A stretch of 64,000 bases of DNA from an uncultured Acidobacteriaceae bacterium (GCA_963712295.1 CAVQHM010000029.1:63704-127703), one strand, 5' to 3'. Shown: positions 1,811 through 64,000, numbered from the stretch's first letter. Numbers and translations are program-made. The notes: generated by a model from the sequence alone, not told the origin.

Positions 1811-1952
1811 GCAGCTTGCGGAAAAAGTCGGTGTTGAACTTGATTTTGGGTGGAGCAGCGCTTCAGCGCTGCAGTAAGTGCATTGTTTTGAATCCGGCTT
1901 TAGCCGCTGAGGGAACGGTTCTCGCTCACGGACAACTTTTTCCGCAGCCTGC
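1811..1952 (+). repeat. Family A intergenic element, copy 1 (about 140 bp with terminal inverted repeats)
   Basis: Ends GCAGCTTGCGGAAAAAGTCG and CGGACAACTTTTTCCGCAGCCTGC are inverted. The core GTAAGTGCATTGTTTTGAATCCGGCTTTAGCCGCTGAGGG is identical in copies at 42524, 48505 and 63538. Confidence 0.85.
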
Positions 1953-2054: not shown

Positions 2055-2096
2055 GAAGAACTCTTCGGCGAACTCGGCGTCTCGGCGGTGAAAATC
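2055..2096. repeat. Family F repeat (GAACTCGGCGTCTCGGCGGTGAA type) abutting the ddl stop
   Basis: Related copies lie at 3363..3405 (opposite orientation), 15285..15418 and 43749..43785. Confidence 0.7.
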
Positions 2097-3298
2097 TACC
2101 GGCTGTACTGATTCCGCTTCTTGTCCTCGTGCCGCTCGATACCCAACTGGATCAGCCGGTCGATCAATTCGGGATACGGCACGCCCGTCGCCGCCCACAG
2201 CTTCGGATACATGCTGATTGCGGTGAAGCCCGGCATGGTGTTGATTTCATTGACAAAAATCCTGCGGGATTTGGGGTCCATCAGAAAATCGACGCGCGCC
2301 AGGCCGGTGCAATCGACCGCTTGAAATGCCGCGATCGCCAGCCGCTGCACCGTTTTCATCTCCGCTTTTGTGATCTTCGCGGGAATGATCCCTTCCGAGC
2401 CCTCCGCCAGATACTTTGCGTCGTAGTCGTAGAACTCCTTGCAGGGAACGATTTCTCCCGCAACCGATGCTTTGGGATCGTCGTTGCCGAGCACCGCGCA
2501 CTCGATCTCGCGTGCCCTGTTCTTCTTTCCGCCAACCCCTTCTTCAATCACGATCTTGCGATCGAACTTTGCCGCTTCCGCGATGGCCGGGCCGAGTTCC
2601 TTCCGATCGTGCGCCTTCGAGATCCCTACCGACGACCCCAGGTTTGCCGGCTTCACGAAGACGGGATACTTCAGCTTGCCCTCCACCAGCCTTTCCACTT
2701 TCCTGGGCTCGCGCTCGAATTGGCCGCGCAACACGGTCGCGTGTTTCACGATGGGCAATCCGGCCGCGCGGAACAAAGACTTCATAATGTCCTTATCCAT
2801 GCCCGCGGAGGAGCCGAGCACGCCCGCTCCAACATAGGCGATGTCAGCCAGTTCGAGCAGGCCCTGAATCGTGCCATCTTCACCGAAGGTCCCGTGGAGC
2901 ACGGGAAAAATAACATCGACGTTGATGGCGCGATCGGCGGCGCGCCGCAGATTCGCGTCGGTCTGGAAGGGCGCAAGTCCGGCGTCGCGCCGCGACGGTT
3001 CGGGAGGAACCACCACCGACTCGCCCGTGGCCAGCAACGCTGCGCCCGGAGTAGCCCCCGGATCGCCCGCGCGAAGTTGCGTAGTTCGTGTGGCGCGGGC
3101 GCCCCCGCCCGCGTCTCCCTTCAGCAATCTCTCGGCGTGTTCCGCCGTGAGCCATCGGCCGTCTTTCGTGATGCCGATGGGAACCACTTCGTATCTTGTT
3201 TTATCGATTGCGTTCAGAACGGAAGCCGCCGACAGCAGCGACACTTCATGCTCGCCGCTGCGTCCGCCAAAGAGGATGCCAACCCGAAGTTTTGCCAT
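2096..3298 (-). CDS. ddl: D-alanine--D-alanine ligase (long form, with low-complexity insertion)
   Basis: N-terminus [27 protein letters not shown] and an ATP-grasp C-terminal half ([20 protein letters not shown]). 400 aa. Confidence 0.9.
3087..3116. repeat. Family E GC-rich palindrome inside the ddl reading frame
   Basis: CGTGTGGCGCGGGCGCCCCCGCCCGCGT with stem CGCGGGCG/CGCCCGCG. The 28-nt core is identical to the intergenic copy at 13522..13549. Confidence 0.85.
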
Positions 3299-5268: not shown

Positions 5269-5298
5269 TTGACACCACGATGAAAACGGATGTAAATT
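5269..5298 (+). promoter_or_regulatory. Candidate sigma70-type promoter (TTGACA-N18-TAAATT)
   Basis: TTGACA at 5269..5274 and TAAATT at 5293..5298, about 170 nt upstream of the ATG at 5467. Confidence 0.3.
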
Positions 5299-5466
5299 AT
5301 CGCGACTTCGAAGACCGGTGCCCGGCCCCTTCCCCATGGCACTTGGACCCAGAGGCTCTCATCGAGGAAATCTAAGAACGGGACCACAGCCTGGATACAG
5401 TTGCCAGGTTGCGGTTGTTTCCCGTTGATGGATGAGGATAGGGCTTCGCATCTCACAGGAGTGTGT

Positions 5467-7296
5467 ATGAATTTGAGGATTCGAGGAAAGAACGTCCTGC
5501 CGAAATGGTCCGTATTGCTGGTTGTTCTTACGGTAACCGCGGTTGCTGCAGCGCAACACAACAAGCCAAGCGCACCCGCTGCCCCATCGCATGCATCTGC
5601 ACCCCATGCCTCCGCTCCGGCCGCGCATTCCGCCCCAGCGCAACGTCCAGGGGGGAACCCCGCGGCGCAACGGCCCGGTGGAGCAGGCGCGAATAACCGG
5701 GGACCCGGTGGCGCGAACGCGAACAATCGCGGCGCGGCAGGCACGAACAACCGCGGGCCTGGTGGCGCGAACGCGAACAATCGCGGCGCGGCAGGCACGA
5801 ACAACCGCGGGCCTGGTGGCGCGAACGCGAACAATCGCGGTACGGCAGGCGCGAACAACCGGGGACCTGGTGGCGCGAACGCGAACAATCGGGGGCAAAC
5901 GAATACCAACAACCGTGGCGGGAATAATGCTAATAATCGCGGTGGGGCTAACAGTCCAAACAACCGTGGTGGCGCAAACAATGCCAACAACCGCGGCAAC
6001 GCGAACAATCGCGGCAACGCCGGAGCCAACGCCAACCGGCATCAGCCCGCGGGAAGCAGGCAGGTGGCCCTGAAGAGCGGTGGGCACGCGACTTTTCGTA
6101 AGGACGGCAAGGTTCGTTCCATTCAAACCGCTCACGGGATGAAGATCGAACACGGAGTGCGCGGCGGGCGGCACATCGAGAGCGTGCACAACGGACGCCG
6201 CGTGGTGAGCTACGGAAGACACGGGGGCTACAGCCAGCGCGCCTACTATCGCCACGGCGGCCGGGAATATTCCCAGCGAACCTACTATAGGGGCGGACAC
6301 TACTACGCGTATGGGTACCGCAACTACTACTATGGCGGCCGTCCATATTACGGTTACGCGCCCTCCTATTACTATGGTCCCGCATACTACGGATGGGCTT
6401 ACAATCCGTGGCCCGCACCGGTTTATTACAACTGGGGCTGGGGAGGGGCGCCCTGGTATGGGTATTACGGCCCTTACTATCAGCCCTATCCGGTGTATCC
6501 GACGGCTGCCTTTTGGCTGACGGATTACTTGATTGCGGCGAACTTGCAAGCTGCTTATGCGGCGCAGCAGGAGGCGGCTGCCGGAGGCGACAACGGCGAA
6601 ATGATGCCTCTGCAACTGGGGCCGGAGTCGTCGGATATGATCGCTTCGCTGTGGACGACCGATCCGCTGATTGCCGCGAACCTCGAAGCGGCCTATGGCC
6701 AATACATGTTAGGCGCAGCAGCACCGGCGGCGAAGGGCAATGCAACGGGGCTCAGTGCTGACGTGAAGAAGGAGCTTGCCGACGAGATGAAGAACGAGAT
6801 CGCCGCGGAAAAGGAAGCGGCGGCAAACGGTCAGAAGGATGCTCCGAGCGGGGACCAGGTACCGGCGGCGCTCGATCCCAACATCCGCATCTTCGTAGTC
6901 TCCACCGACGAGGATCTGACCACGTCGGATAGCGTGGAGTGCTCGCTTACTCCTGGCGATGTGGTCTATCGTACCGGCGACAAACCGGACGATGACAACA
7001 TGGTTGACGCAACCGTAAAGAGCAGCAAGAAGGATGAGTGTGCGGTCGGCGCCACTGTAGGAGTGTCCGTCGATGACCTGCAGGAGATGCACAATCAACT
7101 GCGGATCCAGATGGATGCTGGACTGAAGGAGTTGGCCGACAAGCAAGGGAAGAACGGATTACCAGCCGCCCCCGACACCAAGACGCAGGCTGGGGAAGTC
7201 CCCGCACCAACGCCGGACACGAACGTGGAGAACGACTTGAAAGCGCAACAACAAGAAGCCGACCAGGCGGAGGCGGAAGCCAAGCAGTCGCAGTAA
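5467..7296 (+). CDS. Secreted low-complexity protein with NNRG repeats and a Tyr/Gly-rich segment
   Basis: Signal peptide MNLRIRGKNVLPKWSVLLVVLTVTAVAAAQ, then more than 15 NNRG repeats and a Y/G/P/W-rich block (YYRGGHYYAYGYRNYYYGGRPYYGY). The motif LIAANL(Q/E)AAY is duplicated, followed by an acidic coiled C-terminus. Confidence 0.75.
   Translation: MNLRIRGKNVLPKWSVLLVVLTVTAVAAAQHNKPSAPAAPSHASAPHASAPAAHSAPAQRPGGNPAAQRPGGAGANNRGPGGANANNRGAAGTNNRGPGGANANNRGAAGTNNRGPGGANANNRGTAGANNRGPGGANANNRGQTNTNNRGGNNANNRGGANSPNNRGGANNANNRGNANNRGNAGANANRHQPAGSRQVALKSGGHATFRKDGKVRSIQTAHGMKIEHGVRGGRHIESVHNGRRVVSYGRHGGYSQRAYYRHGGREYSQRTYYRGGHYYAYGYRNYYYGGRPYYGYAPSYYYGPAYYGWAYNPWPAPVYYNWGWGGAPWYGYYGPYYQPYPVYPTAAFWLTDYLIAANLQAAYAAQQEAAAGGDNGEMMPLQLGPESSDMIASLWTTDPLIAANLEAAYGQYMLGAAAPAAKGNATGLSADVKKELADEMKNEIAAEKEAAANGQKDAPSGDQVPAALDPNIRIFVVSTDEDLTTSDSVECSLTPGDVVYRTGDKPDDDNMVDATVKSSKKDECAVGATVGVSVDDLQEMHNQLRIQMDAGLKELADKQGKNGLPAAPDTKTQAGEVPAPTPDTNVENDLKAQQQEADQAEAEAKQSQ
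5707..5895 (+). repeat. 54-bp tandem repeat (about 3.4 copies) inside the CDS
   Basis: GGTGGCGCGAACGCGAACAATCGCGG... restarts at 5707, 5761, 5815 and 5869. It encodes GGANANNRGAAGTNNRGP. Confidence 0.9.
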
Positions 7297-17134: not shown

Positions 17135-17164
17135 GTGAAAAAAGAGTGTACGCCAAAACGTACA

Positions 17165-17309
17165 GGAGGTCAGAGGTCAGATTGCAGAGGTTAACCAACA
17201 TCTGCCGCACAGGGAACTGGGGAACCGAGAATTGGCTTTCCACTTCTGCAATCTGACTTCTGCAATTCTGGTTTCACCTCTGCAATCTGACCTCGTACCT
17301 CTGACCTCC
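17165..17309. repeat. Family D hairpin in the divergent hyuB/sppA intergenic region
   Basis: Arms 17165..17191 and 17276..17309, plus an extra internal arm copy at 17241..17270. Confidence 0.85.
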
Positions 17310-22524: not shown

Positions 22525-22528
22525 AGAC

Positions 22529-22624
22529 GAGGTCAGAGGTGAGAGGTCAGATTGCAGAGGTGAAATCCCAGGCGGTTTGTGTGATGGGTTTTAACCTCTG
22601 CAATCTGACCTCTTACCTCTGACC
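22529..22624. repeat. Family D hairpin between the divergent kinase and kdpD-N genes
   Basis: Arms 22529..22561 and 22594..22624. Confidence 0.85.
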
Positions 22625-22688
22625 TTGCTCACCCATGACCTCACTCACACATCGACAAACTCGAATCTCTCAACGACAATAATCGGCG

Positions 22689-37558: not shown

Positions 37559-38188
37559 ATGAAGAATCTCGGCATTCTGCTTTCCGGACGCGGTTCTAAT
37601 TTTGTGGCCATCGCCGACAGCGTTGCGGCTGGCCGGATTCCTGATGCTCGCATCGCGGTCGTGATTTCGAATCGTTCCGACGCTCCCGGCGTCGAAACCG
37701 CCCGTCAGCGCGGCCTCAACGCGCTCGTCGTTGCGTCGAAAGGCAAGCCGCGCGAGCAGCACGACCGCGAAGTTGTGGCGGCGCTCCTCGACAACCAAGT
37801 CGATCTCATCTGCCTCGCCGGTTACATGCGCCTGCTCTCGCCCTGGTTCGTGCGGCAGTTCCCGGCAAAAATTCTCAACATTCATCCGTCCTTGCTGCCC
37901 GCGTTTCCCGGCTTGGAAGCGCAGCAGCAGGCCTTCGCCTATGGGGTGAAAGTTTCAGGCTGCACGGTGCATTTCGTGGATGAGGAGCTCGATCACGGCG
38001 CCATTATTGTGCAGAAAACTGTCCCTGTGCTGGACTCCGACGACGAGCACACGCTGGCGGCACGAATTCTCGAACAGGAACACATCGCCTACAGCGAAGC
38101 GATAAAGATTGTGCTGGAAGAAAACTTCGAAATTGCCGGTAGGCGAATGGTGAAAGGTCAGAGGTCAGAGGTCAGATTGCAGAAGTAA
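37559..38188 (+). CDS. purN: Phosphoribosylglycinamide formyltransferase (C-terminal 10 residues or so encoded by a family D repeat)
   Basis: LGILLSGRGSNF and NIHPSLLPAFPG. The tail KGQRSEVRLQK is translated repeat. Confidence 0.88.
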   Translation: MKNLGILLSGRGSNFVAIADSVAAGRIPDARIAVVISNRSDAPGVETARQRGLNALVVASKGKPREQHDREVVAALLDNQVDLICLAGYMRLLSPWFVRQFPAKILNIHPSLLPAFPGLEAQQQAFAYGVKVSGCTVHFVDEELDHGAIIVQKTVPVLDSDDEHTLAARILEQEHIAYSEAIKIVLEENFEIAGRRMVKGQRSEVRLQK

Positions 38189-38246
38189 AATCCGAAATTC
38201 ACGATGGGAGGTTTTCACCTCTGCAATCTGACCTCAGACCTCTGCA
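38156..38246. repeat. Family D hairpin between convergent purN and a hypothetical gene
   Basis: Arms 38156..38187 and 38215..38246. Confidence 0.85.
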
Positions 38247-38249
38247 ATC

Positions 38250-42234: not shown

Positions 42235-42384
42235 TCCTATGCCAGTACCTGAGAACCTTCCACCACTTGGGTATCTGATTAGTATAAGGCAGGGAAGGGT
42301 TCAGCGCTCAGCAGGAAACACCATAACTGGGCATCAGGGTATCGCTTTAGCCATACCGCTAAGGTCTTCAAAATCAGACGCCCC

Positions 42385-42523
42385 TTTAGCGGCTGCGGAA
42401 AAACTCGACGTTGCAATTGATTTTGCGTGGAGCAGCGCCGGGGTCCCCAGCACGCCCGGTTTTGGCGTGGTGGGGTGGAGGGCTTCAGCGCTGCATAGCT
42501 GGCGTGTTTTCATCCACGGCTTC
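42385..42523 (+). repeat. Family A element, degenerate copy with an expanded central hairpin
   Basis: AGCGGCTGCGGAAAAACTCGACGTTGCAATTGATTTTGCGTGGAGCAGCGCC...GGGCTTCAGCGCTGC. Confidence 0.6.
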
Positions 42524-42667
42524 ACAGCTTGCGGGAAAAGGCCGATGTTGTACTTGATTTTGGGTGGCGCGGCGGTTTACCGCTGCGGTAAGTGCATTGT
42601 TTTGAATCCGGCTTTAGCCGCTGAGGGCCCCTTGCCGCATGCAAAGCGACTCTTCCCGTAGCCCGCC
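42524..42667 (+). repeat. Family A element, copy 2
   Basis: Carries the invariant 40-nt core. The hairpin variant is GCGGCGGTTTACCGCTGC. Confidence 0.85.
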
Positions 42668-42691
42668 TCAATCGTACCGCTGACTAGCTGT

Positions 42692-43705
42692 TTACCGCAG
42701 CCCAAGTGCGCGCCGATAGGCGACCACGTTCCGATTGTGCTCTTCCAGGCTGCGGGCGAAGCGGTGGTGCCCGTTGCCATCGCTGACGAAGTAAAGGAAT
42801 TTTGTGCTCTCGGGATGCAGGGCGGCTTCCAGCGCGCCTCTTCCCGGATTCGCGATGGGTCCCGGCGGCAACCCGGGGAAACGATACGTGTTATAGGGCG
42901 ACTTCACGGCCAAGTCGTCGTGATGCAGGCTTCCCGAATACGTGCCCGTCAGTTGCTCGGCGTAGATCACGCTCGGATCGGCGTCGAGCGCCATCCTTAA
43001 CGCCAACCGGTTGTAGTACACGCTGGCCACGCGCGGACGCTCCTCCGGAGCCGCCGTCTCTTTTTCGACGATCGACGCCATGGTCACGATCCGCGGGACG
43101 TCGGAGTTCAGCCCAATCTGCTGCGCCACCTGCCGGAACTGATGGACCATCGTAACCGCCATTTCCTCCAGGGTCTCGGTCCGAGTGAACTCGTAGGTGT
43201 TAGGGAACAGATACCCCTCCAGCGACTTGGCGTCCGGCGCGAGATCCGAGATCAGCTGGGTCTGGGTTTCGGCCACATGCACAAAATCGGCCGCCGATCC
43301 AAGCCCCGCGTCCTCCATCGCCTTAGCGATGTCGAATATCGTGTAACCTTCGGGAATGGTGACGGTGTGGAAGTAGATATCGCCGCGCCCGATCCGTTCG
43401 TGAATTTGGGGAAGAGTCGCCGCGCGCTCGAAAAGATACTCCCCCGCCTTCAACGATGGCTTGCGATGCCACGCGTGCCAGAGCCGGAACGCCAGTTCGC
43501 TGCGAATCACGCCCGCCTTCTTCAACTCGGCCGCAATGCGCCGCGTCGAATACCCGGTATGCAGCAGCAGAGAAGTATTGGCTGGAGGCTTAACCGGCGC
43601 ATAGACCTGCCAAGCCACCCAGCCGCCAGCGGCGAGAACGACAATCAGGAATAGTGTGATCAGCGCCCGCAAGGTTCCAGTGTAGAGGTCTTTTCCGATT
43701 GCCAC
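42692..43705 (-). CDS. mltG: Endolytic murein transglycosylase MltG (YceG family)
   Basis: N-terminal TM segment, TIPEGYTIFDIA, ASIVEKETA and YNTYRFPGLPPGPIANPG. Confidence 0.88.
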   Translation of the reverse strand: MAIGKDLYTGTLRALITLFLIVVLAAGGWVAWQVYAPVKPPANTSLLLHTGYSTRRIAAELKKAGVIRSELAFRLWHAWHRKPSLKAGEYLFERAATLPQIHERIGRGDIYFHTVTIPEGYTIFDIAKAMEDAGLGSAADFVHVAETQTQLISDLAPDAKSLEGYLFPNTYEFTRTETLEEMAVTMVHQFRQVAQQIGLNSDVPRIVTMASIVEKETAAPEERPRVASVYYNRLALRMALDADPSVIYAEQLTGTYSGSLHHDDLAVKSPYNTYRFPGLPPGPIANPGRGALEAALHPESTKFLYFVSDGNGHHRFARSLEEHNRNVVAYRRALGLR

Positions 43706-43748: not shown

Positions 43749-43785
43749 TTCTCGGCGCTCTCAGCGTCTCGGCGGTGAAGGTTTC
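43749..43785. repeat. Family F repeat abutting the stop of the AI-2E gene
   Basis: TTCTCGGCGCTCTCAGCGTCTCGGCGGTGAAGG. Confidence 0.65.
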
Positions 43786-44828
43786 TACTCCCCCAGCCAG
43801 TCCGCGTACGGCTTCATCGACTCGACGTGGTCGAACACAATCTTGATCGCGCCCGTGATCGGAATGGCAAGCACCAGTCCGATGGCGCCCCAGACCGCTC
43901 CCCAGAACAGCAGCGCGATCGTGACCGCCAGCGGATTGAGTCTCAGACGGTTTCCCAGCAGCTTGGGATAGAGAACGTTCAGCGCCAAGAGATGCAGCCC
44001 GATTACGCAAAGCAACACGATCAACAGGTCTCCGGCATCCAGTTGTCCCAGGCCGACAAGGATCGGCGGCACCATCGCCAGCACAATTCCGAGGTACGGA
44101 ACCAGGCTCAGAAAGCCGCTGAGAAAGCCGACGAAATAGAAGAAGGGAACGTGCAGCAGCCCGAAAATCACCACGCTCACGCCGGAAATCAGCAGCCCGA
44201 TCAGCAGGTTCCCCACAATGAAGCTCTGCAACATCTTCCCGATCAGCCCCAGGGTCACGAATGCCGTGTGCCGGTGACGCAGAGGAAACAGCATCACCGT
44301 AGAGGAACGCGCGTGGCTCTGCCAGGTCAGCAAAAAATAGGCGAGGAATGGAACAAACACCGCCGCCAACAGGATGTCGGTCAGAGTCCCGGCTCCGCGG
44401 GTGAGCAGATCCGACCAGCTCTGCACCTGCCGCACGCGCACAACATTCAGTGGCTCCGGGGCGCTCACCGCCTCGCCCGTCTTCTCGATCTTCTCCGCCC
44501 CCTGCCGGAACGGCTGCAGGATGGAGCGGATTTTCTGCGAATACTTCGGAACGTTGTCGGCAAAAATCACGGCTTGATTGTAAGAAGCGGAGGTGACGCC
44601 ATAGATCATTGTCAGCAGCGCGACCATGCTGACCAGCGCCGCCAAGGCTCTCGGAACGTGCAGATACTCCAGCGCCTGCACCACCGGAGAGAGCATAAAG
44701 CTCAGCAGAATCGCAAAGAACAGCACCGCCAGCACCATTTCGCCGTAATACGCGAACAGAACAATCAAGCCGATGCCCAGCAGCGTCAGCGACCAGTGAT
44801 GCCCGCTTCGTTCCTCAGAGATCTCCAT
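43785..44828 (-). CDS. AI-2E family transporter (PerM/UPF0118)
   Basis: 347-aa polytopic membrane protein ending ...ALLFWGAVWGAIGLVLAIPITGAIKIV, typical of the family. Confidence 0.8.
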   Translation of the reverse strand: MEISEERSGHHWSLTLLGIGLIVLFAYYGEMVLAVLFFAILLSFMLSPVVQALEYLHVPRALAALVSMVALLTMIYGVTSASYNQAVIFADNVPKYSQKIRSILQPFRQGAEKIEKTGEAVSAPEPLNVVRVRQVQSWSDLLTRGAGTLTDILLAAVFVPFLAYFLLTWQSHARSSTVMLFPLRHRHTAFVTLGLIGKMLQSFIVGNLLIGLLISGVSVVIFGLLHVPFFYFVGFLSGFLSLVPYLGIVLAMVPPILVGLGQLDAGDLLIVLLCVIGLHLLALNVLYPKLLGNRLRLNPLAVTIALLFWGAVWGAIGLVLAIPITGAIKIVFDHVESMKPYADWLGE

Positions 44829-45219
44829 ACTGTGCTTTTACTCATCCCCTGCCGGCTGGCAAACAATTCTGCCTCACTGCCGCCGGAATTGCACCCGAGA
44901 ATTGCGACACGGTCCCGATAGACCACGAAGGCCACAAAGGAGCCCGATGGGAACTCTAGAATTCCCGACCGGACGATGCACCAGCCGCGAAGCGGCGGAA
45001 CAGGAAAGCCCGGCACGGCAGTGCCGGGTAGGCGGAAGTAGAACCAACCGAGTCCCGCGAGGGACGGAACCTGTACGACACAGACTCCGGACGGACGTCC
45101 GAGTTCTCGCCACACTCTTCACCGCTGCGGCAACTGGATTATTGTGGATACCGGCTTTGACATCGCCGGAATCGCGGATGTTAAGAAGCTTTTCTACCTC
45201 TGCCATCTACAATTGACGA

Positions 45220-45772: not shown

Positions 45773-48433
45773 CTAGTGCAGCATTGCCACGTCCGGAGTC
45801 ACCGACGTGCCGTCCAGGTAAAAGCTGACCGCACCCTCCATGTCGGTGCGGTAGGTTTTAACCCCGGTCTGCTGCAACCGCTCCAACACTTCGCGCCGCG
45901 GATGTCCATAAACATTTCGCGCGCCGACCGAAATGACCGCAAAACGCGGATGCACCGTCGCGAGCAGATCGGCGGAAGTTCCGCTCGCGCTTCCGTGATG
46001 AGCGACCTTCAGCAGCATTGCTTCCGGGTGCTCGTCCACCACCCGTCGTTCCACCGGACGTTCCGCGTCTCCCTCCAGCAAAGCGGTCGTGCCGCCAAAA
46101 GTGGCCGTGAACACCAGGCAATCGTCGTTCGGACGCATCGACCCGGTAATTTGGTCGCGCCCCGGGGCGAATACGCGGAAATGCGTTCCGCCGTAATCGA
46201 ATGTATCGCCGTCTTTCTCCACGGAGACTTTCATCCCCGCGCTCTGGGCTTGCGCGACGATCGGAGCCAATTCGCCCACCGGCTTGTCGATACTTATCCA
46301 AAGTTCCCGCGGGTGGAAATTCGCGATCACCGCCGGCATCCCGCCGAGGTGATCTGCATGAGGATGCGTGATGACGACCGCGTCCAGACGATCGATGCCG
46401 CGATTCCAAAGATAAGAAGAGACCACCTGCTCGCCGATATCGAAGTCCGAATGCATCCACTGCGCCATGCCTCCAGCATCGATGAGCAGAGCGCGGCCCG
46501 CGGGCGTGACCAGCAGGATGGAGTCGCCTTGCCCGACGTCAATGGCCGTCATCTCCATCACGCCCGCGCGAAGGTGAGGGCGAGAGGGGACAAACGCGAT
46601 CCAGCCGGCAACGCCGAACAGCAACGCCACGGAAGCGAAGGCGGCCAGGCGCGAGCGCCGGACTTGCACCGCCATCATGGCCAGCGCCAGAGCCGCGAGC
46701 GAGGCCAAAATCATTGCGAGCGAGGGCATGGCCACGCGCAGGTCGGCGATCGATCCTAACAACTGCCTGCCAGCAACCGGGGCGCCGCCGAGAAGATGTA
46801 CCGTTCCCGCGATACCCTCAAGCGCGAGGCCGGAAATCCAAACCGCGGGCTTGGCGAGAGTGGTCGAGATATATCCCAGGCCGACGGCGGCGGCCGCTGT
46901 AGGCATCAGCACCTGGGTGAGCGGAATCACCGCCAGGTTGGCCGGCATTCCCATGGTGGTCGCGCGATGAAAGTGGTAGGCCATAAGCAGCGCCAGCCCC
47001 GCCTGCATCAGCGCCGAAATGAAGATCAACTCGCTCGCGCCAATTGCCACTCGCATGAAGATCGCGGGCAGTATGACGCCGAGGCGCTCCCCCACAAATC
47101 TCGTCAACCGCCCCGCGATCATCCGCAGCTCGAGCCGGAACTGCGCCACCTCGCGAGCGACATGCAGATCGTAGCTGGCCGCCCGCAACAGCCGCAGACC
47201 GCGCGCATAGGGCAACGTTGTCCGCTCCAGAATCGGCGCGCCGATGCCCGCGATGATGAAGACGGCAAGAAACGTCAGCTGAAAGCTGGCCCCAAACAGG
47301 GCGTGTGGGTCGGCGATCAGAACTCCCAGAGCCGCCGCGCCAATAGCGTTCATCATGTTGCGTCCGCGATACAACAGACGCGCCCCCAGGTAGATCGCCA
47401 GCATCAGGGCGGCGCGCCAGACCGGTGGGCCGACTCCCACTACAAATGCATAGCAGAACGAGACCACCACGGTCGTAATCGCCGCCACTGCGGGATCCAC
47501 ACGAAACTGCCGCAACACCCAGAAAATCGCGAACGCCAGAATGCTCAGGTTCATTCCCGAAACAACCAGTACGTGATACGTCCCCGAGCGCTGGTACTCG
47601 GTGCGGGTTGCATTGCGCAGGAACGATTCTTCGCCCAGAACCATGGCGTCCATGAGCTCGGCCTGCGGCGCCGGCCAAAGCTGATGAATCTTTGCGATGA
47701 TGCTGGCATGAACGCGCGCCCGCCAGAGTTGAATCCAGCTGCCGGAAAACCCGGGGAGCCGCTGCAGGTCCTTGGCCTCCGCCGATCCCAGCACGCTAAT
47801 GCCGTTGTCGCGCAAATAGCCTTCATAATCGAAAGCTCCCGGATTGCGGTAATTGCGAGCCGGATGCAACTTGGCGACGATGCGAAGCCGCGTGCCATAG
47901 GTGAGTGGGCATTGGGTGATCGGGTGATCGGATGATCCGGGTGGCATCTAAGATCACCGGATCAGCCCGATGGACCGATGCGCCCGATTCTCCACCTTCT
48001 CGTAAATCGCAAGCCGCACCCCAGCCCGCACCGGCCAGGTTTCGCCCTGGCTTGCGATCGTTTCCGTCTCCACATCAATGGATTCGCGAATCGACCGCGG
48101 CCCCGCCGCCCGAGCATATCCCTCGCGAATCACGTGCCCGGTAAGCGTGACGGCCCGGCCATCGGCCAAAGTGAGAATGTGAGGATCAACCGGCCGTTGA
48201 CCGCGTATCTGAATTAGAAGCGCGCCAAGAAGAAACCATGCGCCCAGAGAAAGTGCCTTGGCCAGCCAAGCTCGCCTCGCAAGGAAGAATGACGACGCCA
48301 GGACGAACGCCACGACCGCGATCACCCACCACGACGGCGGCCGCCAGGCGCGCACGCCTGTCCAGAGGCCGAGTGAAAATACCAGCGCCGCCCAGAACAA
48401 CGGCTGCCGCGGCGGATTCTGGTTGCGCATCAT
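45773..48433 (-). pseudogene. comEC: ComEC/Rec2 DNA internalisation protein, interrupted by TGA-TCT-TAG in frame at 47948..47956
   Basis: The N-terminal ORF 47954..48433 (TM segments plus the first half of the OB fold) and the ORF 45773..47947 (PLTYGTRLRI..NPGAFDYEGYL, competence domain, MBL motif ITHPHADHLGG) are in the same phase, separated by two stops inside a GATCACC-type palindromic repeat. Confidence 0.8.
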
Positions 48434-48504
48434 TTTCTAGCTCGATGGAAAGGAAGGGCACGACATCCAGTCGTGCCATCAGGCCTAAGAAAGAAGCCCG
48501 CCTT

Positions 48505-48645
48505 CACAGGCTGCGGAAAAACGCGATCTTGCATTTGATTTTGGGTGGCGCAGCGCTTCAGCGCTGCGGTAAGTGCATTGTTTTGAATCCGGCTTTAGCC
48601 GCTGAGGGCACGGCTCTAGCTCGGAAACGACTTTTCCGCAGCCTG
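48505..48645 (+). repeat. Family A element, copy 3, flanked by a 34-bp direct duplication
   Basis: Invariant core present. CCAGTCGTGCCATCAGGCC(T/G)AAGAAAGAAGCCCG occurs at 48467..48500 and 48648..48681. Confidence 0.85.
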
Positions 48646-48843
48646 TTCCAGTCGTGCCATCAGGCCGAAGAAAGAAGCCCGGCTTCAGCCGCTGAGGGCC
48701 AACGATCCTCTTAGGACGGAGCAGCTTTTCCAGGCCCCGCTTTGTCCGACTTACACGCAGGACGAGCGGGGCCCGCGCACCCCAAACTTGCGCGGGCCCC
48801 GGCCACCCGTCTTCCGGGAGAAACTTGGACGACGTGAAAGCGG

Positions 48844-50190
48844 TCAGCGCGCCAGCAGCATCACCGATTCGATGTGAAACGTCTGGGGGAAGAGATCGAA
48901 TAAGTGTGCTTCCTCGATGTGGTAGCCGGCCGCCAGAAGGGGGGCGAGATCCCTGGCCAGCGTCGCCGGATCGCACGAAACGTACCGGACTCGGGGCGCT
49001 CCGAGTTCCACCAGAGAACGGATCACCGCTTTGCCGGCGCCAGCGCGGGGAGGGTCCAGGACAACCAAATCAGTCCGATTTCGCACTGGCCGGCTTCGCA
49101 GATCATCGCTCCTAAGGTAATCCTCGGTTCGCGCGCCGACCGCTTTCACGTTCGCAGGCACATTCTGCACCAAGTCCCCGTGCGCTGTCTGTGACGCCTC
49201 TACAGCAAAAATGTGACGAAAACTGCCAGCCAAGGCCGCCGAAAATAGTCCCACACCGGCATAGAGGTCGAGTGCGAGGTCTCCGCCGGCGTTGCCGGTC
49301 ACGACCGAAACCAGGTCGTCGATCAGATGGCGGTTCACCTGAAAAAAGGCTCCCGCGCTGACCTGATATTCGTGCTCCTTGGTTTGATAGCCAATGGTTT
49401 GATAGGCAATGGTTCGATAGCGGATCGCCTTCGCGCCCGATTGCGCCAGCGCCTTCGGATCGGGCATTTCATCTTCTTCCACCCGCCGCCGCGAAGCGAA
49501 GAACGTCACGCCGCTGATTTCCGGCAACTCGCGCTGAATCGCCTCCGCCCAGCGCAACAGGTCTCTCTTGTCTGCCTCGCGTCCGCAAAAAGCCCAGGCC
49601 AGCAAATGCTCGTCGGCCGCATCCGCGAACAGCTCGATCTCTTCGACCGCTGCCGGGCAGTTCAATCCGCCGAGCTCAACCAAGCGCGCCATCATCCGAT
49701 TGAGCAGCGGCGAGCTGATCGGACATTCGCCGATGGGAAGAAACTCGTGCGAGCCGAACCGGAAGTATCCCAGCGCAAATCCGAACAATGTCCGCACCTG
49801 CAGCCGCGTCCGGTTGCGATAGTTCCACGGAGGAGAAGGGTGCAACCGAATCTCAGCCGTCAGCTCAATCTTCGCGATCCGCCGCAGCGTCTCGTGCAGA
49901 ATTCCAGCTTTGAACTCCAGTTGCCGCTCGTACGGGATGTGCTGGTAATGGCATCCGCCACATTGGCGAAAGTACGTGCAGCGAGCCTCGACGCGATCAG
50001 ACGACGCTTCGATCAACCGCGCAACGGAGCCGCGCGCGAACCCAGGTTTTTCTAGCCCAATCTCGGCCTCAACTTTTTCTCCCGGCAAAACAAACGGCAC
50101 AAACACCGCCATGCTGCGCCCATCCGCGCCGGGAGCCGTCCGTGCCAGCCCGTCACCGCCGTAAATCAGTTTTTCGATGGAAAGAAGCAT
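48844..50190 (-). CDS. rlmD: 23S rRNA (uracil-5)-methyltransferase RlmD/RumA family
   Basis: TRAM-like N-terminus, the Fe-S motif CTYFRQCGGCHYQH, SAM motifs LDLYAGVGLF and VLDPPRAG, and a catalytic Cys in YVSCDPATLARD. Confidence 0.85.
   Translation of the reverse strand: MLLSIEKLIYGGDGLARTAPGADGRSMAVFVPFVLPGEKVEAEIGLEKPGFARGSVARLIEASSDRVEARCTYFRQCGGCHYQHIPYERQLEFKAGILHETLRRIAKIELTAEIRLHPSPPWNYRNRTRLQVRTLFGFALGYFRFGSHEFLPIGECPISSPLLNRMMARLVELGGLNCPAAVEEIELFADAADEHLLAWAFCGREADKRDLLRWAEAIQRELPEISGVTFFASRRRVEEDEMPDPKALAQSGAKAIRYRTIAYQTIGYQTKEHEYQVSAGAFFQVNRHLIDDLVSVVTGNAGGDLALDLYAGVGLFSAALAGSFRHIFAVEASQTAHGDLVQNVPANVKAVGARTEDYLRSDDLRSRPVRNRTDLVVLDPPRAGAGKAVIRSLVELGAPRVRYVSCDPATLARDLAPLLAAGYHIEEAHLFDLFPQTFHIESVMLLAR
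49381..49425. repeat. 15-bp tandem repeat x3 in frame in rlmD
   Basis: GGTTTGATAGCCAAT, GGTTTGATAGGCAAT, GGTTCGATAGCGGAT, encoding IRYRT IAYQT IGYQT on the minus strand. Confidence 0.85.
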
Positions 50191-51962: not shown

Positions 51963-52042
51963 ATTTGTAATTGGTAATTTGTAATCGGTAATTTGAAAGC
52001 ACCAGTCTTTCAATTACAAATTACAAATCACAAATTACCAAT
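51963..52042. repeat. AT-rich inverted repeat (TTTGTAATTGGTAATTTGTAATCGGTAATTTG ... CAATTACAAATTACAAATCACAAATTACCAAT)
   Basis: Lies between the coaX start and the birA stop. The right arm supplies the last birA codons. Confidence 0.8.
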
Positions 52043-53134
52043 GATCCTCACCGTCCCACTAACCACCGTCCGCAACCCCTCCGCCGTCCTGACGCGCAAG
52101 AACCCGCGCTCATCCAACCCCTCGGTAACGCCCTCCAGGCCGCCGTTCTCCTCGATCGTCACATTGCTGCCGCGCACCGACGAAGAACTCGCCTCGAACC
52201 GGCGCAAGATCCCCGCCCGCGCTCCCGCATTTGCCACCAAACCCCGATACTCCCGGTCGAGCGATTTTAGCAAAGCGGCGCAGAGTTCCACGCGCGACCA
52301 CTCCGTGCCGGTCTCGATCCGCAACGAGGTCGCAATCTCGCGCAGCTCCGCCGGAAACTTCACCTGATTCACGTTGATCCCGACGCCCACGACCAGGTGG
52401 CGCACTCGCGTCACTTCGGCATTCATCTCCGTAAGAATGCCGCAGAACTTCTTTCCGCCAAGCAGCAGGTCGTTGGGCCATTTCAGATCGACGGACAGCT
52501 GCGGAGCAATCTCCGCCACCGCCGAGCGTATCGCCAGTCCCGCAGCCAGCGAAAAAATGAGCGCATCCGAGGGCGGCATCGCCGGACGCAGGATCGCCGA
52601 GCAGTAGATTCCCGCCGACCGCGCCGAATGCCAGGTGTGCGCGCCGCGCCCCCGTCCCGCCAGCTGTTCTTCGGCAAGAAAGACGCTGCCTTCGGGCGCG
52701 CCCTCCATCGCGGCTCGCATCGCCTCCAAATTGGTCGAACCGATCTTGTAATAATGATGAATCTGCTTGGCGCTGATTTCGCGACTAGGTTTTGGGTAGG
52801 GCACGGCTTCAGCCGTGCCGTCCGCGGTCTCGAGAGACGTGGGCTTCAGCCCCTGAGGGACACGCCTTCCGCCCCCGCCAAAGATCGTCCCCTTCAACGA
52901 CGGCGCCAACATCTCCGGCAACAACAGGTCTGGGACCGCCCGCAGTTGATAGCCGGTTGCCGGATGTCCAGCGACATCCACGCCCAACCCGCGCAGTTGC
53001 TGAATCAGCCGCCAGACTTCCGACCGGCTAGTGCCAATCTCCTCGGCAATCTTCGTGCCGCTGACGACAACGATAGCGTGGTCCATCAGCAGCCGCACAA
53101 TGCGGCCCAGGCGAACGTCAGTCGCCTTGTGCAC
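52028..53134 (-). CDS. birA: Bifunctional biotin--[acetyl-CoA-carboxylase] ligase / biotin operon repressor
   Basis: N-terminal HTH (ISGTKIAEEIGTSRSEVWRLIQQLRGLG) and the ligase motif GRGRGAHTWHS. The start is uncertain (GTG at 53134 or further upstream). Confidence 0.85.
   Translation of the reverse strand: MHKATDVRLGRIVRLLMDHAIVVVSGTKIAEEIGTSRSEVWRLIQQLRGLGVDVAGHPATGYQLRAVPDLLLPEMLAPSLKGTIFGGGGRRVPQGLKPTSLETADGTAEAVPYPKPSREISAKQIHHYYKIGSTNLEAMRAAMEGAPEGSVFLAEEQLAGRGRGAHTWHSARSAGIYCSAILRPAMPPSDALIFSLAAGLAIRSAVAEIAPQLSVDLKWPNDLLLGGKKFCGILTEMNAEVTRVRHLVVGVGINVNQVKFPAELREIATSLRIETGTEWSRVELCAALLKSLDREYRGLVANAGARAGILRRFEASSSSVRGSNVTIEENGGLEGVTEGLDERGFLRVRTAEGLRTVVSGTVRIIGNL
52794..52859. repeat. 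Hairpin pair (GCACGGCTTCAGCCGTGC and GGGCTTCAGCCCC) inside the birA reading frame
   Basis: Translated as GLKPTSLETADGTAEAVPYP, between the HTH and ligase domains. Confidence 0.8.
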
Positions 53135-53199
53135 CGACGGCAGGCTGCGAGTTTTGGTGGAAGTGGAGATGGAGGGAATTATAACCAGTCGCTGGTGAT

Positions 53200-53255
53200 C
53201 GTGTGGGGACGGGCGCCCTCGCCCGTCCAGCCGAGCGCAGCTCGGCAGCCGCCGC
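53200..53255. repeat. Family E bipartite element
   Basis: CGTGTGGGGAC-GGGCGCCCTCGCCC-GTCC-AGC-CGAGCGCAGCTCGG-CAGC. Confidence 0.85.
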
Positions 53256-53258
53256 ACC

Positions 53259-54137: not shown

Positions 54138-54142
54138 GATCG

Positions 54143-54224
54143 CGTAGGGACGGACGCATTCGTCCGTCCAACCTCACGTAGGGACAGCCGCCCTCGGCTG
54201 TCCAGCGGCTCGAAGAGCCGCAGC
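54143..54224. repeat. Two adjacent family E units between nadC and valS
   Basis: CGTAGGGACGGACGCATTCGTCCGTCC, and CGTAGGGACAGCCGCCCTCGGCTGTCCAGCGGCTCGAAGAGCCGCAGC. Confidence 0.85.
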
Positions 54225-54232
54225 TCACTGTA

Positions 54233-57107
54233 TTACGAGCAGCCCAACTCTTTCATCTTGGCGAGGATTTTTTCCCGCAGCACCTTCAACTCTTCCGCCC
54301 GCGCCGTCAGCCCCTCCACGACCTTCACCGGCGCCTTCGCCAGAAACTGTTCGTTCGAAAGCTGCCGCTGCCCGTTGGCGATCTCCTTCTCGATCTTCTC
54401 CAACTCCTTCTTCAGTCGCTCACATTCCGCCGCAACGTCGATCTTCTTTTCGTATAGCGCATGCACATCAAACCGCGAAGTACTGCGAGCCCCCGGCAGG
54501 TTTGCCAGCGACCTTTCCACGAATGTGACCTTCTCCACACTCCCCAGCCGCTCGATCGCCGCCAGATTCCTCTCGAGCATCGCGCGAATCTCCGGATTCA
54601 TGCGCAAACACCTCGATCGGCACTTTGATCTTAGGCTCGACTTTCAATTCCGCCCGCAGATTGCGCACCGCAACGATCAGGTCCTGCAGGATCGCCATCT
54701 CCGTTTCAGCGCCCAGGTCAATCTGCGTTTCATCCGCGGCCGGATAGGCCGCCAGCGCAATCGACTTCAGCGGAGGCGTGCCATCGTACATCGCCTGCCA
54801 GATTTCTTCCGTGATAAACGGCATCACCGGATGCAGCAGCCGCAAAGAAGCCTCAAACAAATTGACGAGATTCGCACATGCGACTCGCGCCGCGATCGTG
54901 TGGGGACGGGGCTCTGCCCCGTCCAGGGCGGGCCGGAGAACCGCCTCCACACTTTCCTCATTCAGCCGTGGCTTGATCAGTTCCAGGTACCAGTCGCAAA
55001 ACTCGCCCCAGAAAAAATCGTAGATGCGAGTCGCGGCCTCATCGAAGCGATAAGTCTCCAGCGACTCGTTCACGTCGCGAGTCGCGCGATTGAACCGCGA
55101 GAGAATCCACCGGTCCTCAAGCGAACCAACCTCAAACCCGGCAACGCCCACGTAGGGGCGGACGCATTCGTCCGCCCCGGGCCGCAGGCCCGCGTCGATC
55201 CGGTCCACATTCATGAACATCAACCGAGCCGCATTCCATATCTTATTGGCAAAATTCCGATACCCCGCCGTGCGGCTCTCGCTAAACGCGATATCGGTCC
55301 CCGGCGCCGCCATCGCCGCCAGGGTAAAGCGCGTCGCATCGGTTCCGTACTTCCCGATGACTTCAATCGGATCGAGCACGTTCCCCTTCGTCTTCGACAT
55401 TTTCTGCCGGTCCGCATCGCGCACCAGCGCGTGGATATAAACTTCGCGAAAGGGAACGCTCGCGCGCAGCGCATCTTCTTCCGACCCCAAACTTGCCTCA
55501 GAACGCTGGCCCGGCCTGTGCGGCGGCATCATGAACCAGCATCCCAGCATGATCATGCGCGCCACCCAGAAAAACAGAATGTCAAAGCCGGTGATCATCA
55601 GCGAATTGGGATAGAAAACTTCCTCGTCGCGAGTCGCCGCAGGCCAGCCCAAAGTAGTGAACGGCAGCAACCCCGAAGAAAACCAAGTGTCAAGCACGTC
55701 CGCATCCTGCTCCAGGTTCTTGCTGCCGCATTTGCAAGCCGCAGGAGCCTCGCGCGCCACGATCACTTCCCCGCAAGCGCCGCAATACCAAGCCGGGATC
55801 CGGTGTCCCCACCACAACTGCCGCGAGATGCACCAGTCGTGGATGTTCCGCATCCAGTTCAAATAAATCTGCCCGTAATTTTCCGGCGTGAACCGTATGT
55901 ATCCCTTCTCGACAACCTCAATCGCCCGCTTCGCCAGCGGCGCAATCTTGACGAACCACTGCGTCGAGAGCCGCGGCTCGACAATCGTGCCCGAGCGGTC
56001 GCACTTGCCCAAAGCAATCGTGTAATCCTTGGTGCCCACGAGGTACCCTTGCTCCGCCAGGTCTTCCACCACATGCGCGCGCGCCGCAAAGCGATCCAGC
56101 CCCGCGTAACGGCCGGCATTCGCATTCATCTTCGAGTGCTCGTCAATCACTTCGATCTGCGGCAGGTTGTGTCGCAGTCCGGCCAGGAAGTCGTTGGGAT
56201 CATGCGCCGGCGTGACCTTCACCGCGCCCGTGCCAAACTCCGGCTGGGCCAGTTCGTCGGCGATGATCGGAATCTCCCGATTCATCAGCGGCAGCATCAC
56301 ATGCTTACCCAGCAGATGCGTGTAGCGTTCGTCTTTAGGATTGACCGCGACCGCCGTGTCGCCCAACATCGTCTCCGGACGCGTAGTCGCCACGGTAATA
56401 AATTGCGTAGGGACAGCCGCCCCCGGCTGTCCAGCGGCGCGAGGCGCCGCAGCCTCTGTGTCCACCACCGGATACCGGATCTCATACAGCTTGCCCGCGA
56501 TGTCCTCGTGCTTCACTTCGAGGTCCGAGATCGCCGTGCCGCAGTCGGAACACCAGTTCACGATGTACTTCCCGCGATAGATCAGCCCCTCTTCATACAG
56601 CCGCACGAACACTTCCTTCACCGCGTGTGACAGCCTGTCGTCCATGGTGAAGTATTCCCGGCTCCAATCGACCGAAGCGCCCAGCCGTTTCATCTGATCG
56701 AGAATCGCGCTGCCGTACTCGCGCCGCCATTCCCAGACGCGCTCCAGAAACTTCTCGCGCCCCATCTCGCGCCGCTTCTTGCCTTCTTTCAAAAGCTGGC
56801 GCTCCACCAGCATCTGCGTCGCGATGCCGGCGTGGTCGGTCCCCGGCAGCCAGAGCGAGACGAAGCCGCGCATGCGCTGCCAGCGCACCATGACGTCCAT
56901 CTGCGTCTGTTCCATCATGTGCCCCATGTGCAGCCGCCCGGTCACATTGGGAGGAGGCAACAACAGCGTGAACACAGGACGCACATCTTTTTCGGACGAA
57001 CTGGGCGGAGGCGTCTCCACCTGAAACAGTTTTTCCCGGACCCAATACTCGGCCCAGCGCGCTTCAATCGCGCCCGGTTCGTAAGCTTTCGGCAATTCGT
57101 GCGGCAT
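54233..57107 (-). CDS. valS: Valine--tRNA ligase; frame broken by one extra base near 54600..54607
   Basis: HIGH region PPPNVTGRLHMGH and KMSKS region KMSKTKGN. ORF 54233..54607 encodes the C-terminal coiled coil (ERLKKELEKIEKEIANGQRQLSNEQFLAKAP) in the adjacent frame. Confidence 0.9.
54897..54934. repeat. Family E unit inside the valS frame
   Basis: CGTGTGGGGACGGGGCTCTGCCCCGTCCAGGGCGGGCC, translated as RPALDGAEPRPHTI. Confidence 0.8.
55151..55183. repeat. Family E unit inside the valS frame
   Basis: CGTAGGGGCGGACGCATTCGTCCGCCCCGGGCC, translated as PGADECVRPYV. Confidence 0.8.
56406..56453. repeat. Family E bipartite unit inside the valS frame
   Basis: CGTAGGGACAGCCGCCCCCGGCTGTCCAGCGGCGCGAGGCGCCGCAGC, translated as AAAPRAAGQPGAAVPT just before the conserved ITVATTRPETMLGD. 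Confidence 0.85.
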
Positions 57108-57120
57108 CTTGTGTGGCTCA

Positions 57121-57166
57121 CGTGGGGACGGACGCATTCGTCCGTCCCAGCCAGGCATAGCCTGGC
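57121..57166. repeat. Family E unit just upstream of the valS start
   Basis: CGTGGGGACGGACGCATTCGTCCGTCCCAGCCAGGCATAGCCTGGC. Confidence 0.8.
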
Positions 57167-63200: not shown

Positions 63201-63470
63201 ATGGCGCATAAAAAAGGACAAGGCACTTCACGAAACGGGCGCGACTCGAACGCGCAGCGGCTTGGGTTCAAGGCTTTCGGCGGACAACTGGTGCCGGGCG
63301 GCACGATCATCGTCCGCCAGCGCGGAACGCGGGTGAAGCCCGGACTGAACGTTGGACGCGGCAAGGACGACACGCTCTTCGCCAAGATCACGGGGCGCAT
63401 CAAGTTCCTCGACAAGGGATCGATGGGGAAGTTTGTGATGGTCGAGCCCGAGGCGATTGAAGCGAAGTAG
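63201..63470 (+). CDS. rpmA: 50S ribosomal protein L27
   Basis: [43 protein letters not shown]. Confidence 0.92.
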
Positions 63471-63537
63471 AGCGCAGACAGGTTGCGTGTTGCGTCCACG
63501 TCTAGAGTTTCGTATCGCTGCATCGCTTCGTATCAGG

Positions 63538-64000
<463 letters not shown>

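Follow-up and report, generated by a model that had tools for sequence, protein, structure and literature searches.

Four copies of one element between genes

The window, a 64-kb stretch of DNA from an uncultured Acidobacteriaceae bacterium, contains four copies of a small, palindrome-rich element, here called Family A. A 40-nt core, GTAAGTGCATTGTTTTGAATCCGGCTTTAGCCGCTGAGGG, is matched exactly at 1874-1913, 42588-42627, 48569-48608 and 63611-63650, always on the plus strand, and the number of matches expected by chance is zero (100 shuffles). A repeat search returned the same four units of about 140 nt, with 74-91% overall identity, and a partial fifth copy at 42383-42438. With boundaries taken from the sequence and from the empty sites described below, the units measure 139-142 nt and end in terminal inverted repeats of 15-19 nt, for example CAGCTTGCGGCAAAAGTCG and CGACTTTTTCCGCAAGCTG at 63549/63688. 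Four core-sharing copies in one orientation, with inverted repeats at their ends, had been claimed in a preliminary description of this DNA, and both points are borne out; the starts given there agree to within 1-2 nt for three copies, but the last was placed about 10 nt too early.

Copy 1 (1812-1951, plus strand, 140 nt) lies between an S1-domain gene (195-1568) and ddl (2096-3298), both on the minus strand, about 60 nt upstream of the S1-gene promoter match TTGACA-18-TATAGT, and is bordered by an imperfect 4-bp duplication, CTGG (1808-1811) and CTAG (1952-1955). Copy 2 (42525-42666, plus strand, 142 nt), flanked by TTCA (42521-42524) and CTCA (42667-42670), shares with a degenerate copy the spacer that separates yceG from a LolA-like gene, two minus-strand genes. 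Copy 3 (48507-48645, plus strand, 139 nt), flanked by TTCA (48503-48506) and TTCC (48646-48649), lies between a DUF4131 gene (47954-48433, minus strand) and a TRAM/tRNA-U5-methyltransferase gene (48844-50190, minus strand). Copy 4 (63549-63688, plus strand, 140 nt) is bounded by a perfect TTTA/TTTA duplication (63545-63548, 63689-63692) and occupies the loop of the hairpin GGGCATCGC/GCGATGCC between rpmA (63201-63470, plus strand) and obg (63849 onward, plus strand). Copies 1 and 4 differ at 12 positions, none of them within the core. That the copies are intergenic, as first described, holds throughout, the sole exception being the right end of the outer, degenerate copy, which overlaps the last four codons of yceG.

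Nested copies and their hosts

The degenerate copy previously placed at 42385 is real, extending from 42389 to about 42704 on the plus strand, but, rather than being a neighbour of copy 2, it is a relative of greater age that encloses copy 2 and has another spacer (ATAGCTGGCGTGTTTTCATCCAC). Copy 2 interrupts the loop of its second hairpin (CGGC-TTCA), and a 44-nt extra hairpin, CGGGGTCCCCAGCACGCCCGGTTTTGGCGTGGTGGGGTGGAGGG (42439-42482, plus strand), splits its first. The older element in turn adjoins the GCCCC-TTTA hairpin of a further, third host motif at 42340-42388. A related contig (L012), 97.1% identical to the window over 6.3 kb, contains the same nested arrangement, with TTCA/TTCA flanking the orthologous copy; since copy 2 and its host are common to both, this insertion is the older one. 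The final four codons of yceG (mltG; 42692-43705, minus strand), and its stop codon, are provided by the terminal repeat at the older element's right end, GTTTACCGCAGCCC (42690-42704).

The 44-nt GC-rich hairpin (CCCCAGCACGCC-GGGTTTT-GGCGTGCTGGGG plus flanks) takes the equivalent position inside hairpin 1 in three elements with different spacers, the other two being at about 1395-1440 of L013 and about 5825-5870 of L009 (element at L009 5788-5916). It is either the marker of a sub-lineage or an even smaller inserting unit.

Copies 3 and 4 also sit in two-hairpin hosts. The host of copy 3 (48440-48700, plus strand) leaves the copy flanked by a 42-bp direct repeat (48466-48507, 48647-48688), which corresponds to the host stretch between the hairpin-1 and hairpin-2 loops. 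Such a junction could have arisen by recombination between insertions in both loops, or by the joining of two transposon ends to different loops. The host of copy 4 (63519-63745, plus strand) consists of GGGCATCGC-TTTA-GCGATGCC, 19 nt and GCCCC-TTTA-GGGGC; it is found uninterrupted in one relative (L026), inverted in three other loci (L018, L020, L023), and with full terminal repeats at both ends in two more (L084 and L139).

Anatomy of the element and of the larger family

In a Family A element the two terminal repeats enclose a centre with an arm on either side, about 28 nt on the left and about 38 nt on the right, the consensus of the 15-19-nt ends being CAGSYTGCGGAAAAA ... TTTTTCCGCRSCTG. 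The centre begins with TTGATTTTGGGTGG, continues through hairpin 1 (7-8 bp, with a TTCA or TTTA loop), a 23-nt spacer and hairpin 2 (CGGC-TTTA-GCCG), and closes with GCTGAGGG. Across the wider family the same scaffold recurs as TTTTGGGTGG, hairpin 1, a variable spacer of 20-26 nt (mode 23), hairpin 2 and GCTGAGG. Among the 140 matches listed there are 129 distinct spacers, which form a continuum around roughly GATAACTGSCTTGTTTTCAGAGTC; the Family A spacer is one variant within it, with near neighbours such as GGTAACTGCATTGTTTTGAATGT. Family A is therefore one branch, defined by its spacer, of a much larger family. Some members of that family (L010 787-930, L090, L113 and L131) carry their own 5' motif tandemly reiterated upstream of the scaffold, as TTGATTTTGG or as three to four units of TTTTGGGTGGCGC.

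The regions of the element are conserved to very different degrees. The mean pairwise difference among 13 complete Family A copies is 0.02 in TTGATTTTGGGTGG and 0.045 at core positions outside the 20-mer used for retrieval; it is 0.14 in hairpin 1, where nearly all of it comes from one base pair and the loop. The left and right terminal repeats differ by 0.10 and 0.23, and the left and right arm interiors by 0.34 and 0.51. The centre (0.02-0.05) is thus far better kept than either the ends (0.10-0.23) or the arm interiors (0.34-0.51), a pattern that is unusual for a purely selfish element and that a transposon model alone leaves unexplained.

Empty and filled sites

The flanks of the window copies were compared with those at 16 further genome-assembly loci retrieved with a 20-nt piece of the core, and these flanks suggested both a 4-bp duplication and insertion into hairpin loops. 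Empty and filled sites in relatives had been named beforehand as the test of mobility, and such pairs were found at two of the four loci, rpmA-obg and ddl-S1.

At the first of these, contigs encoding the window's exact L27 protein were collected (many metagenome contigs do encode it). One, L026, has an identical L27 protein and an rpmA-obg spacer in which GGGCATCGC-TTTA-GCGATGCC is intact, while the window has GGGCATCGC-TTTA-[CAGCTTGCGG ... CCGCAAGCTG]-TTTA-GCGATGCC; the single TTTA of the empty site corresponds to TTTA[140 nt]TTTA in the filled one. Exact-protein look-ups for the gene neighbours of copies 1 and 3 gave no matches, and for copy 1 contigs were fetched by ddl homologues encoding 97-98% identical proteins. 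In L031, whose ddl is 97% identical to that of the window, the ddl-S1 spacer is kept and copy 1 is absent, with substitutions around the junction; L030 also lacks copy 1. Copies 1 and 4 are accordingly recent insertions, and Family A insertions vary between genomes of one species or genus. The empty sites, the terminal inverted repeats, the 4-bp duplication and the nested insertions together support the first of the two readings offered in the preliminary description, that of a MITE-like mobile element. The duplication, the choice of hairpin loops, the nesting and the membership in a larger family had gone unremarked there.

Insertion at the tips of hairpins

Target choice was surveyed in 39 non-redundant elements with both ends among the metagenome matches listed. 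Their size is mostly 137-144 nt, and the flanking tetranucleotides are mainly TTCA, TTTA, CTAG, TTAG and CTAA, with 12 pairs still identical; several duplications are imperfect (CTGG/CTAG, TTCA/TTCC). In 16 of these 39 elements the two flanks are complementary at five or more of eight positions, as in a hairpin stem, where chance predicts about one in 39 (binomial), which implies that the target tetranucleotide had been a hairpin loop. Sites of the CTAG type show no hairpin. The targets are therefore YTNR tetranucleotides of two kinds, CTAG, TTAG or CTAA in ordinary DNA and TTCA or TTTA at the apex of a GC-rich hairpin.

The hairpins that are hit have the typical form AGGGCACGGC-TTCA-GCCGTGCC, or GGC-TTYA-GCC followed by GCTGAGGG, and most of them are hairpin 1 or hairpin 2 of a sibling. 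Full elements with matching terminal repeats and target-type hairpins as their centre are seen in L016 and in L084/L139. Because the internal hairpins of siblings serve as targets, copies nest and pile up in intergenic spacers, as at 42389-42704 of the window, at 2579-2860 of L009, and in L016, L058 and L010. A strict orientation relative to the host hairpin was considered and rejected: ten copies agree, but the nested copy in L010 is inverted.

Hairpin loops of the host type may also attract unrelated insertion sequences. At about 5740-5780 of L025, a DUF772/DDE_Tnp_1 transposase gene abuts TTGGGCGCGGGCACGGCTTTT, apparently the 5' half of such a hairpin cut at the loop.

Range and orientation

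Exact cores were found at 16 genome-assembly loci, all in metagenome-assembled genomes (MAGs) of Acidobacteriaceae/Terriglobia and identical in about ten different MAG species; the Family A spacer variant was likewise found only in Acidobacteriaceae/Terriglobia genomes, one Nanoarchaeota match to a piece of the core being due to chance. The central scaffold occurs in at least 120 metagenome loci, from soil and peat. Viral contigs gave no core match and two scaffold matches, both attributable to chance, and a plasmid collection gave no match to the element.

The shared orientation to which weight had first been given is correct for the window, where five of five copies lie on one strand, but chance would give this about once in 16 and it is not a property of the family, so that the weight was unjustified. 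Family-wide orientation was assessed with a simple GC3-based heuristic gene caller that reproduces the known genes of the window. Among the matches listed, spacers between co-directional genes hold 40 copies in sense and 21 in antisense (p about 0.02, normal approximation), and convergent spacers outnumber divergent ones by 24 to 11. We do not take strand or orientation bias as a sign of function, the five of five being not significant and the family-wide bias mild and common for intergenic repeats. A mostly intergenic distribution is itself typical of MITE and REP elements.

Family A as a non-autonomous transposon

Family A is very probably a non-autonomous, cut-or-copy DNA transposon (MITE) of the Acidobacteriaceae/Terriglobia. 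It has the small size without coding capacity, the terminal inverted repeats, the duplication of fixed length and the dispersed copies, present in some genomes and absent from others, by which such elements are recognised. We suggest that a DDE-type transposase supplied in trans would make 4-bp staggered cuts, and that hairpin tips would be preferred since the tetranucleotide is exposed there. That the enzyme may be IS5-like is suggested only by the length of the duplication, 4 bp, and by sites that resemble YTAR. The conserved central module would either be needed by active lineages or have had its spacer homogenised by gene conversion between the hairpin segments.

Searches of 1.09 Mb of fetched loci, of viral contigs and of a plasmid collection gave no autonomous element with matching terminal repeats, IS5-like or other, and the trans-acting transposase is for this reason hypothetical. 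Candidates for such a partner were pursued and set aside. Where two terminal repeats lay 0.4-3.5 kb from each other, or a single end lay beside an open reading frame, the sequence proved to be that of neighbouring MITEs or ordinary genes, and the ends of the DUF772/DDE_Tnp_1 transposase gene in L025 are unrelated. Alignment of the terminal repeat with IS5 ends, made for E. coli IS5 only, was not significant, 96-304 of 2000 shuffles scoring as well.

Gene conversion and the conserved centre

The conservation of the centre may reflect selection, whether for transposition itself or for some role in the host or as RNA, or gene conversion seeded in the hairpin segments, and both are possible. Under the latter, the invariant 40-nt core would have no function, and conversion tracts or template switches between copies, beginning and ending in the conserved hairpin segments, would carry the spacer between lineages. 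Arms that are identical can enclose different spacers (L002 versus L058), and one spacer is found with at least four arm types, so the elements are mosaics, as conversion predicts; the segments flanking the spacer are near-identical in all members and would offer the necessary homology, and the other spacers drift freely, as their diversity among the matches listed attests. Independent homogenisation, however, should let species diverge, and the core is identical across the MAG species that carry it; several spacers moreover coexist in single genomes (L009), so homogenisation is at best partial. The mosaic structure thus favours conversion or recombination, while the identity of the core between species favours selection, and we regard a functionless core spread by conversion as possible, though not as the probable explanation.

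Structure and the question of an RNA

The preliminary description had also raised a family of small structured RNAs as an alternative, which has gained no support, there being no Rfam match, no promoter match inside the two copies scanned and one covarying internal pair. All three of the hairpin variants reported there are present in the sequence, but the "compensatory substitutions" reduce to one flip of the loop-closing pair, from C-G to G-C or the reverse, and a G.T wobble in the GCGGCGG variant. In 138 non-redundant members among the matches listed, the closing pair of hairpin 1 is C-G in 76, G-C in 59 and mismatched in three. The flip is real covariation and a structural constraint, with which a fold in RNA and a fold in DNA are equally compatible.

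The proposal that the whole unit folds into one long hairpin stands in part: consensus folds retain the terminal repeats and the pair of short internal hairpins, but not the rest. Single-sequence folds are good for three copies (minimum-free-energy z-scores of -2.5, -0.6, -5.0 and -5.0 for the four), and a long conserved hairpin was rejected on consensus folds of sets of 13 and 33 elements, which keep the terminal-repeat stem and hairpins 1 and 2. Covariation in these folds is confined to the terminal repeats and the one hairpin-1 pair; in the terminal repeats it is to be expected of two ends recognised by a single transposase.

A small protein encoded by the frame that is open through some copies was likewise considered and rejected. 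Spacer lengths of 20-26 nt shift the reading frame, so there is no coding constraint and no conserved open reading frame; within the core no codon position varies, and in the one frame that stays open the flip in hairpin 1 changes the amino acid.

That the elements are, or also act as, small structured RNA genes or modules, in which the spacer would be a recognition sequence and mobility only the means of spread, we consider unlikely. Several observations fit it. Family A copies from about ten genomes keep the centre far better than they keep arms and terminal repeats, the hairpin-1 closing pair covaries, and an A-T pair of the same hairpin tolerates a G.T wobble six times against one non-pair. 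Scaffold positions outside the query are kept even where terminal repeats are lacking, TTTT upstream and GCTGAGG downstream in 73 of the 138 members listed, and the elements show the modest sense bias relative to co-directional flanking genes already described. Against this, Rfam gives no match on any copy at gathering thresholds (no named RNA family had been recognised in the preliminary description either), and at E<=10 the segment 63500-63850 yields chance matches only, the best of which, to VA RNA, reaches 22.9 bits where the gathering score is 62. A consensus scan of two copies found no sigma-70 promoter match inside them, and no terminator-like hairpin with a directly following run of T was found in the copies scanned. 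Three of the window's four copies run antisense to the genes around them and one runs sense; the hairpins, being insertion targets, could be constrained equally well as DNA, and the spacers form the continuum expected from subfamily drift. We think it equally improbable that the two-hairpin module is a functional scaffold, either an RNA or a protein-binding DNA platform, with the spacer as its specificity-giving or guide-like part, spread on a transposon chassis; were this so, the 23-nt spacer of Family A would be a variant under purifying selection across species.

A third account, that these are REP/REPIN-type palindromes moved through single-stranded DNA by an HUH tyrosine transposase (RAYT or TIRYT) with the hairpins as recognition sites, deserved attention, since Acidobacteria possess their own group of tyrosine transposases associated with TIRs, the TIRYT group (PMC3733652). 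It could draw on the many short GC hairpins, on the GTAG just before hairpin 1 in some host copies (GGGTAGGGCACGGC) and on the single strand shared by all window copies, but the strand bias is not general, the hairpin of Family A itself is preceded by GTGG rather than GTAG, its long terminal inverted repeats lack the GGGGWSAS reported as a motif of repeats linked to TIRYT, and neither a RAYT nor a TIRYT gene was found beside any copy. To our knowledge HUH Y1 transposases (the IS200/IS605 family) produce no target duplication, and the site-dependent 4-bp duplications TTTA, TTCA and CTAG, seen at the empty/filled pairs and across the 39 elements listed, contradict this mechanism and make it very unlikely.

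Relation to known mobile and palindromic elements

As a MITE family, Family A may be set beside those already known from bacteria, which include the Correia elements of Neisseria, RUP of Streptococcus pneumoniae, ERIC/IRU, Nezha and Chunjie. Like these it is non-coding, 100-200 nt long and bounded by terminal inverted repeats and a short target duplication, and it is dispersed in intergenic copies that can fold as hairpins and are present in some strains and absent from others. Unlike these, to which it bears no sequence relationship, it duplicates 4 bp at YTNR and not TA, prefers the apex of hairpins, nests within itself and conserves its centre rather than its ends.

Insertion into palindromes is known from IS1397 and ISKpn1 (IS3 family) and from REP-targeting elements of the IS110 family, which insert into REP/BIME palindromes. 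As with IS1397 and ISKpn1, the target of Family A is the loop of a repeated extragenic palindrome; those elements, however, are autonomous and carry their own transposase, whereas Family A is a non-autonomous 140-nt unit that strikes palindromes of its own family. The IS5 group duplicates 4 bp at YTAR, and Family A resembles it both in the length of the duplication and in having CTAG, TTAG and CTAA among its commonest sites in the matches listed, but YTAR does not cover the TTCA and TTTA sites in loops, which are equally common.

With REP/REPIN sequences and TIR repeats (PMC3733652) Family A shares the character of short, GC-rich, often clustered intergenic palindromes, from which it differs in its target-site duplications and long terminal inverted repeats. 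A two-hairpin relative in birA, described below, recalls the Rickettsia palindromic elements in lying in frame within an essential gene, in being translated there and in being polymorphic among orthologues. These belong to another phylum and have another sequence, and the likeness is limited to this short relative, the four Family A copies being intergenic.

A literature search on Acidobacteria and MITEs returned nothing specific and no description of small repeats in Acidobacteriaceae; one survey paper mentions, without detail, MITEs in phages of 'Acidobacteriae UBA7540'. The element is thus ordinary in kind and its family undescribed, the notable habits being its targeting of hairpin tips and its self-nesting. 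For the targeting of hairpin palindromes, IS1397 and other autonomous elements provide precedents.

Few soil bacteria are as abundant as the Acidobacteriaceae, and the family is apparently very abundant in soil and peat metagenomes. Its insertions alter intergenic spacers between strains that share 97% identity, in this window including the rplU-rpmA-obg operon and the stretch just upstream of the S1-gene promoter. In annotation it accounts for many spurious small open reading frames, and short-read assemblies break at it. To the study of transposons it contributes a clear example of insertion at hairpin tips and of self-nesting, habits that may permit spread without hitting genes, and it raises the question of why the ends, which the transposase must recognise, should be less conserved than the centre.

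In-gene relatives and other repeats in the window

An uninterrupted relative of the host elements lies at 52783-52864 (plus strand), with the structure TTTTGGGTAGG-GCACGGC-TTCA-GCCGTGC, 23 nt, GGC-TTCA-GCC-CCTGAGGG. This two-hairpin segment of 80-100 nt is in frame within birA (52028-53257, minus strand), between the HTH and ligase domains, and encodes GRRVPQGLKPTSLETADGTAEAVPYPKPSREI. Precisely this segment is missing from some BirA orthologues whose remaining sequence is 91-95% identical (P0164, P0170, P0191, P0199, P0214), and others have it or tandemly duplicated versions of it (P0131, P0128, P0135); a single empty allele (L155) was available for locating its ends and any duplication.

The leuS open reading frame (54468-57158, minus strand), whose C-terminal 40 residues look unlike LeuRS, contains two in-frame, GTAG-tagged, REP-like palindromes at 55146-55178 and 56406-56453, with the predicted peptides GLRPGADECVRPYVG and AAAPRAAGQPGAAVPT. 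Palindromes of this type also lie between genes, at 54138-54224 and 53202-53249. Further REP-like palindromes occur at 16286, 59056, 59089 and 62340 and at 3087, 13522 and 16772, for example AGACGCGGTAAGCCGCGTCTCTACAGG with a CTAC (GTAG) tag. A separate dispersed family based on GGTCAGAGGTCAGATTGCAGAGGT (10819, 17157-17307, 22527-22625, 38138-38248, 50970) often forms inverted pairs between genes, and two more short families are built on CTGAGAACTGAGAACTGGGAACT (9428, 18289, 50212) and ATTGTCATCCTGAGCGAAGCGAAGGATCTGC (8323, 37458, 60546). The genome is unusually rich in several unrelated families of small palindromic repeats.

Two other features were observed in the window. An Acido-Lenti-1 RNA (RF01687) at 44983-45028 on the minus strand scores 48.8 bits against a gathering score of 37 and lies upstream of the gene at 43785-44828, in keeping with an acidobacterial source of the window. 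At 5622-5945, at least five tandem units of 54 nt with a 24/30-nt sub-periodicity lie inside a long open reading frame (5296-7296, plus strand), which probably encodes a repetitive protein.
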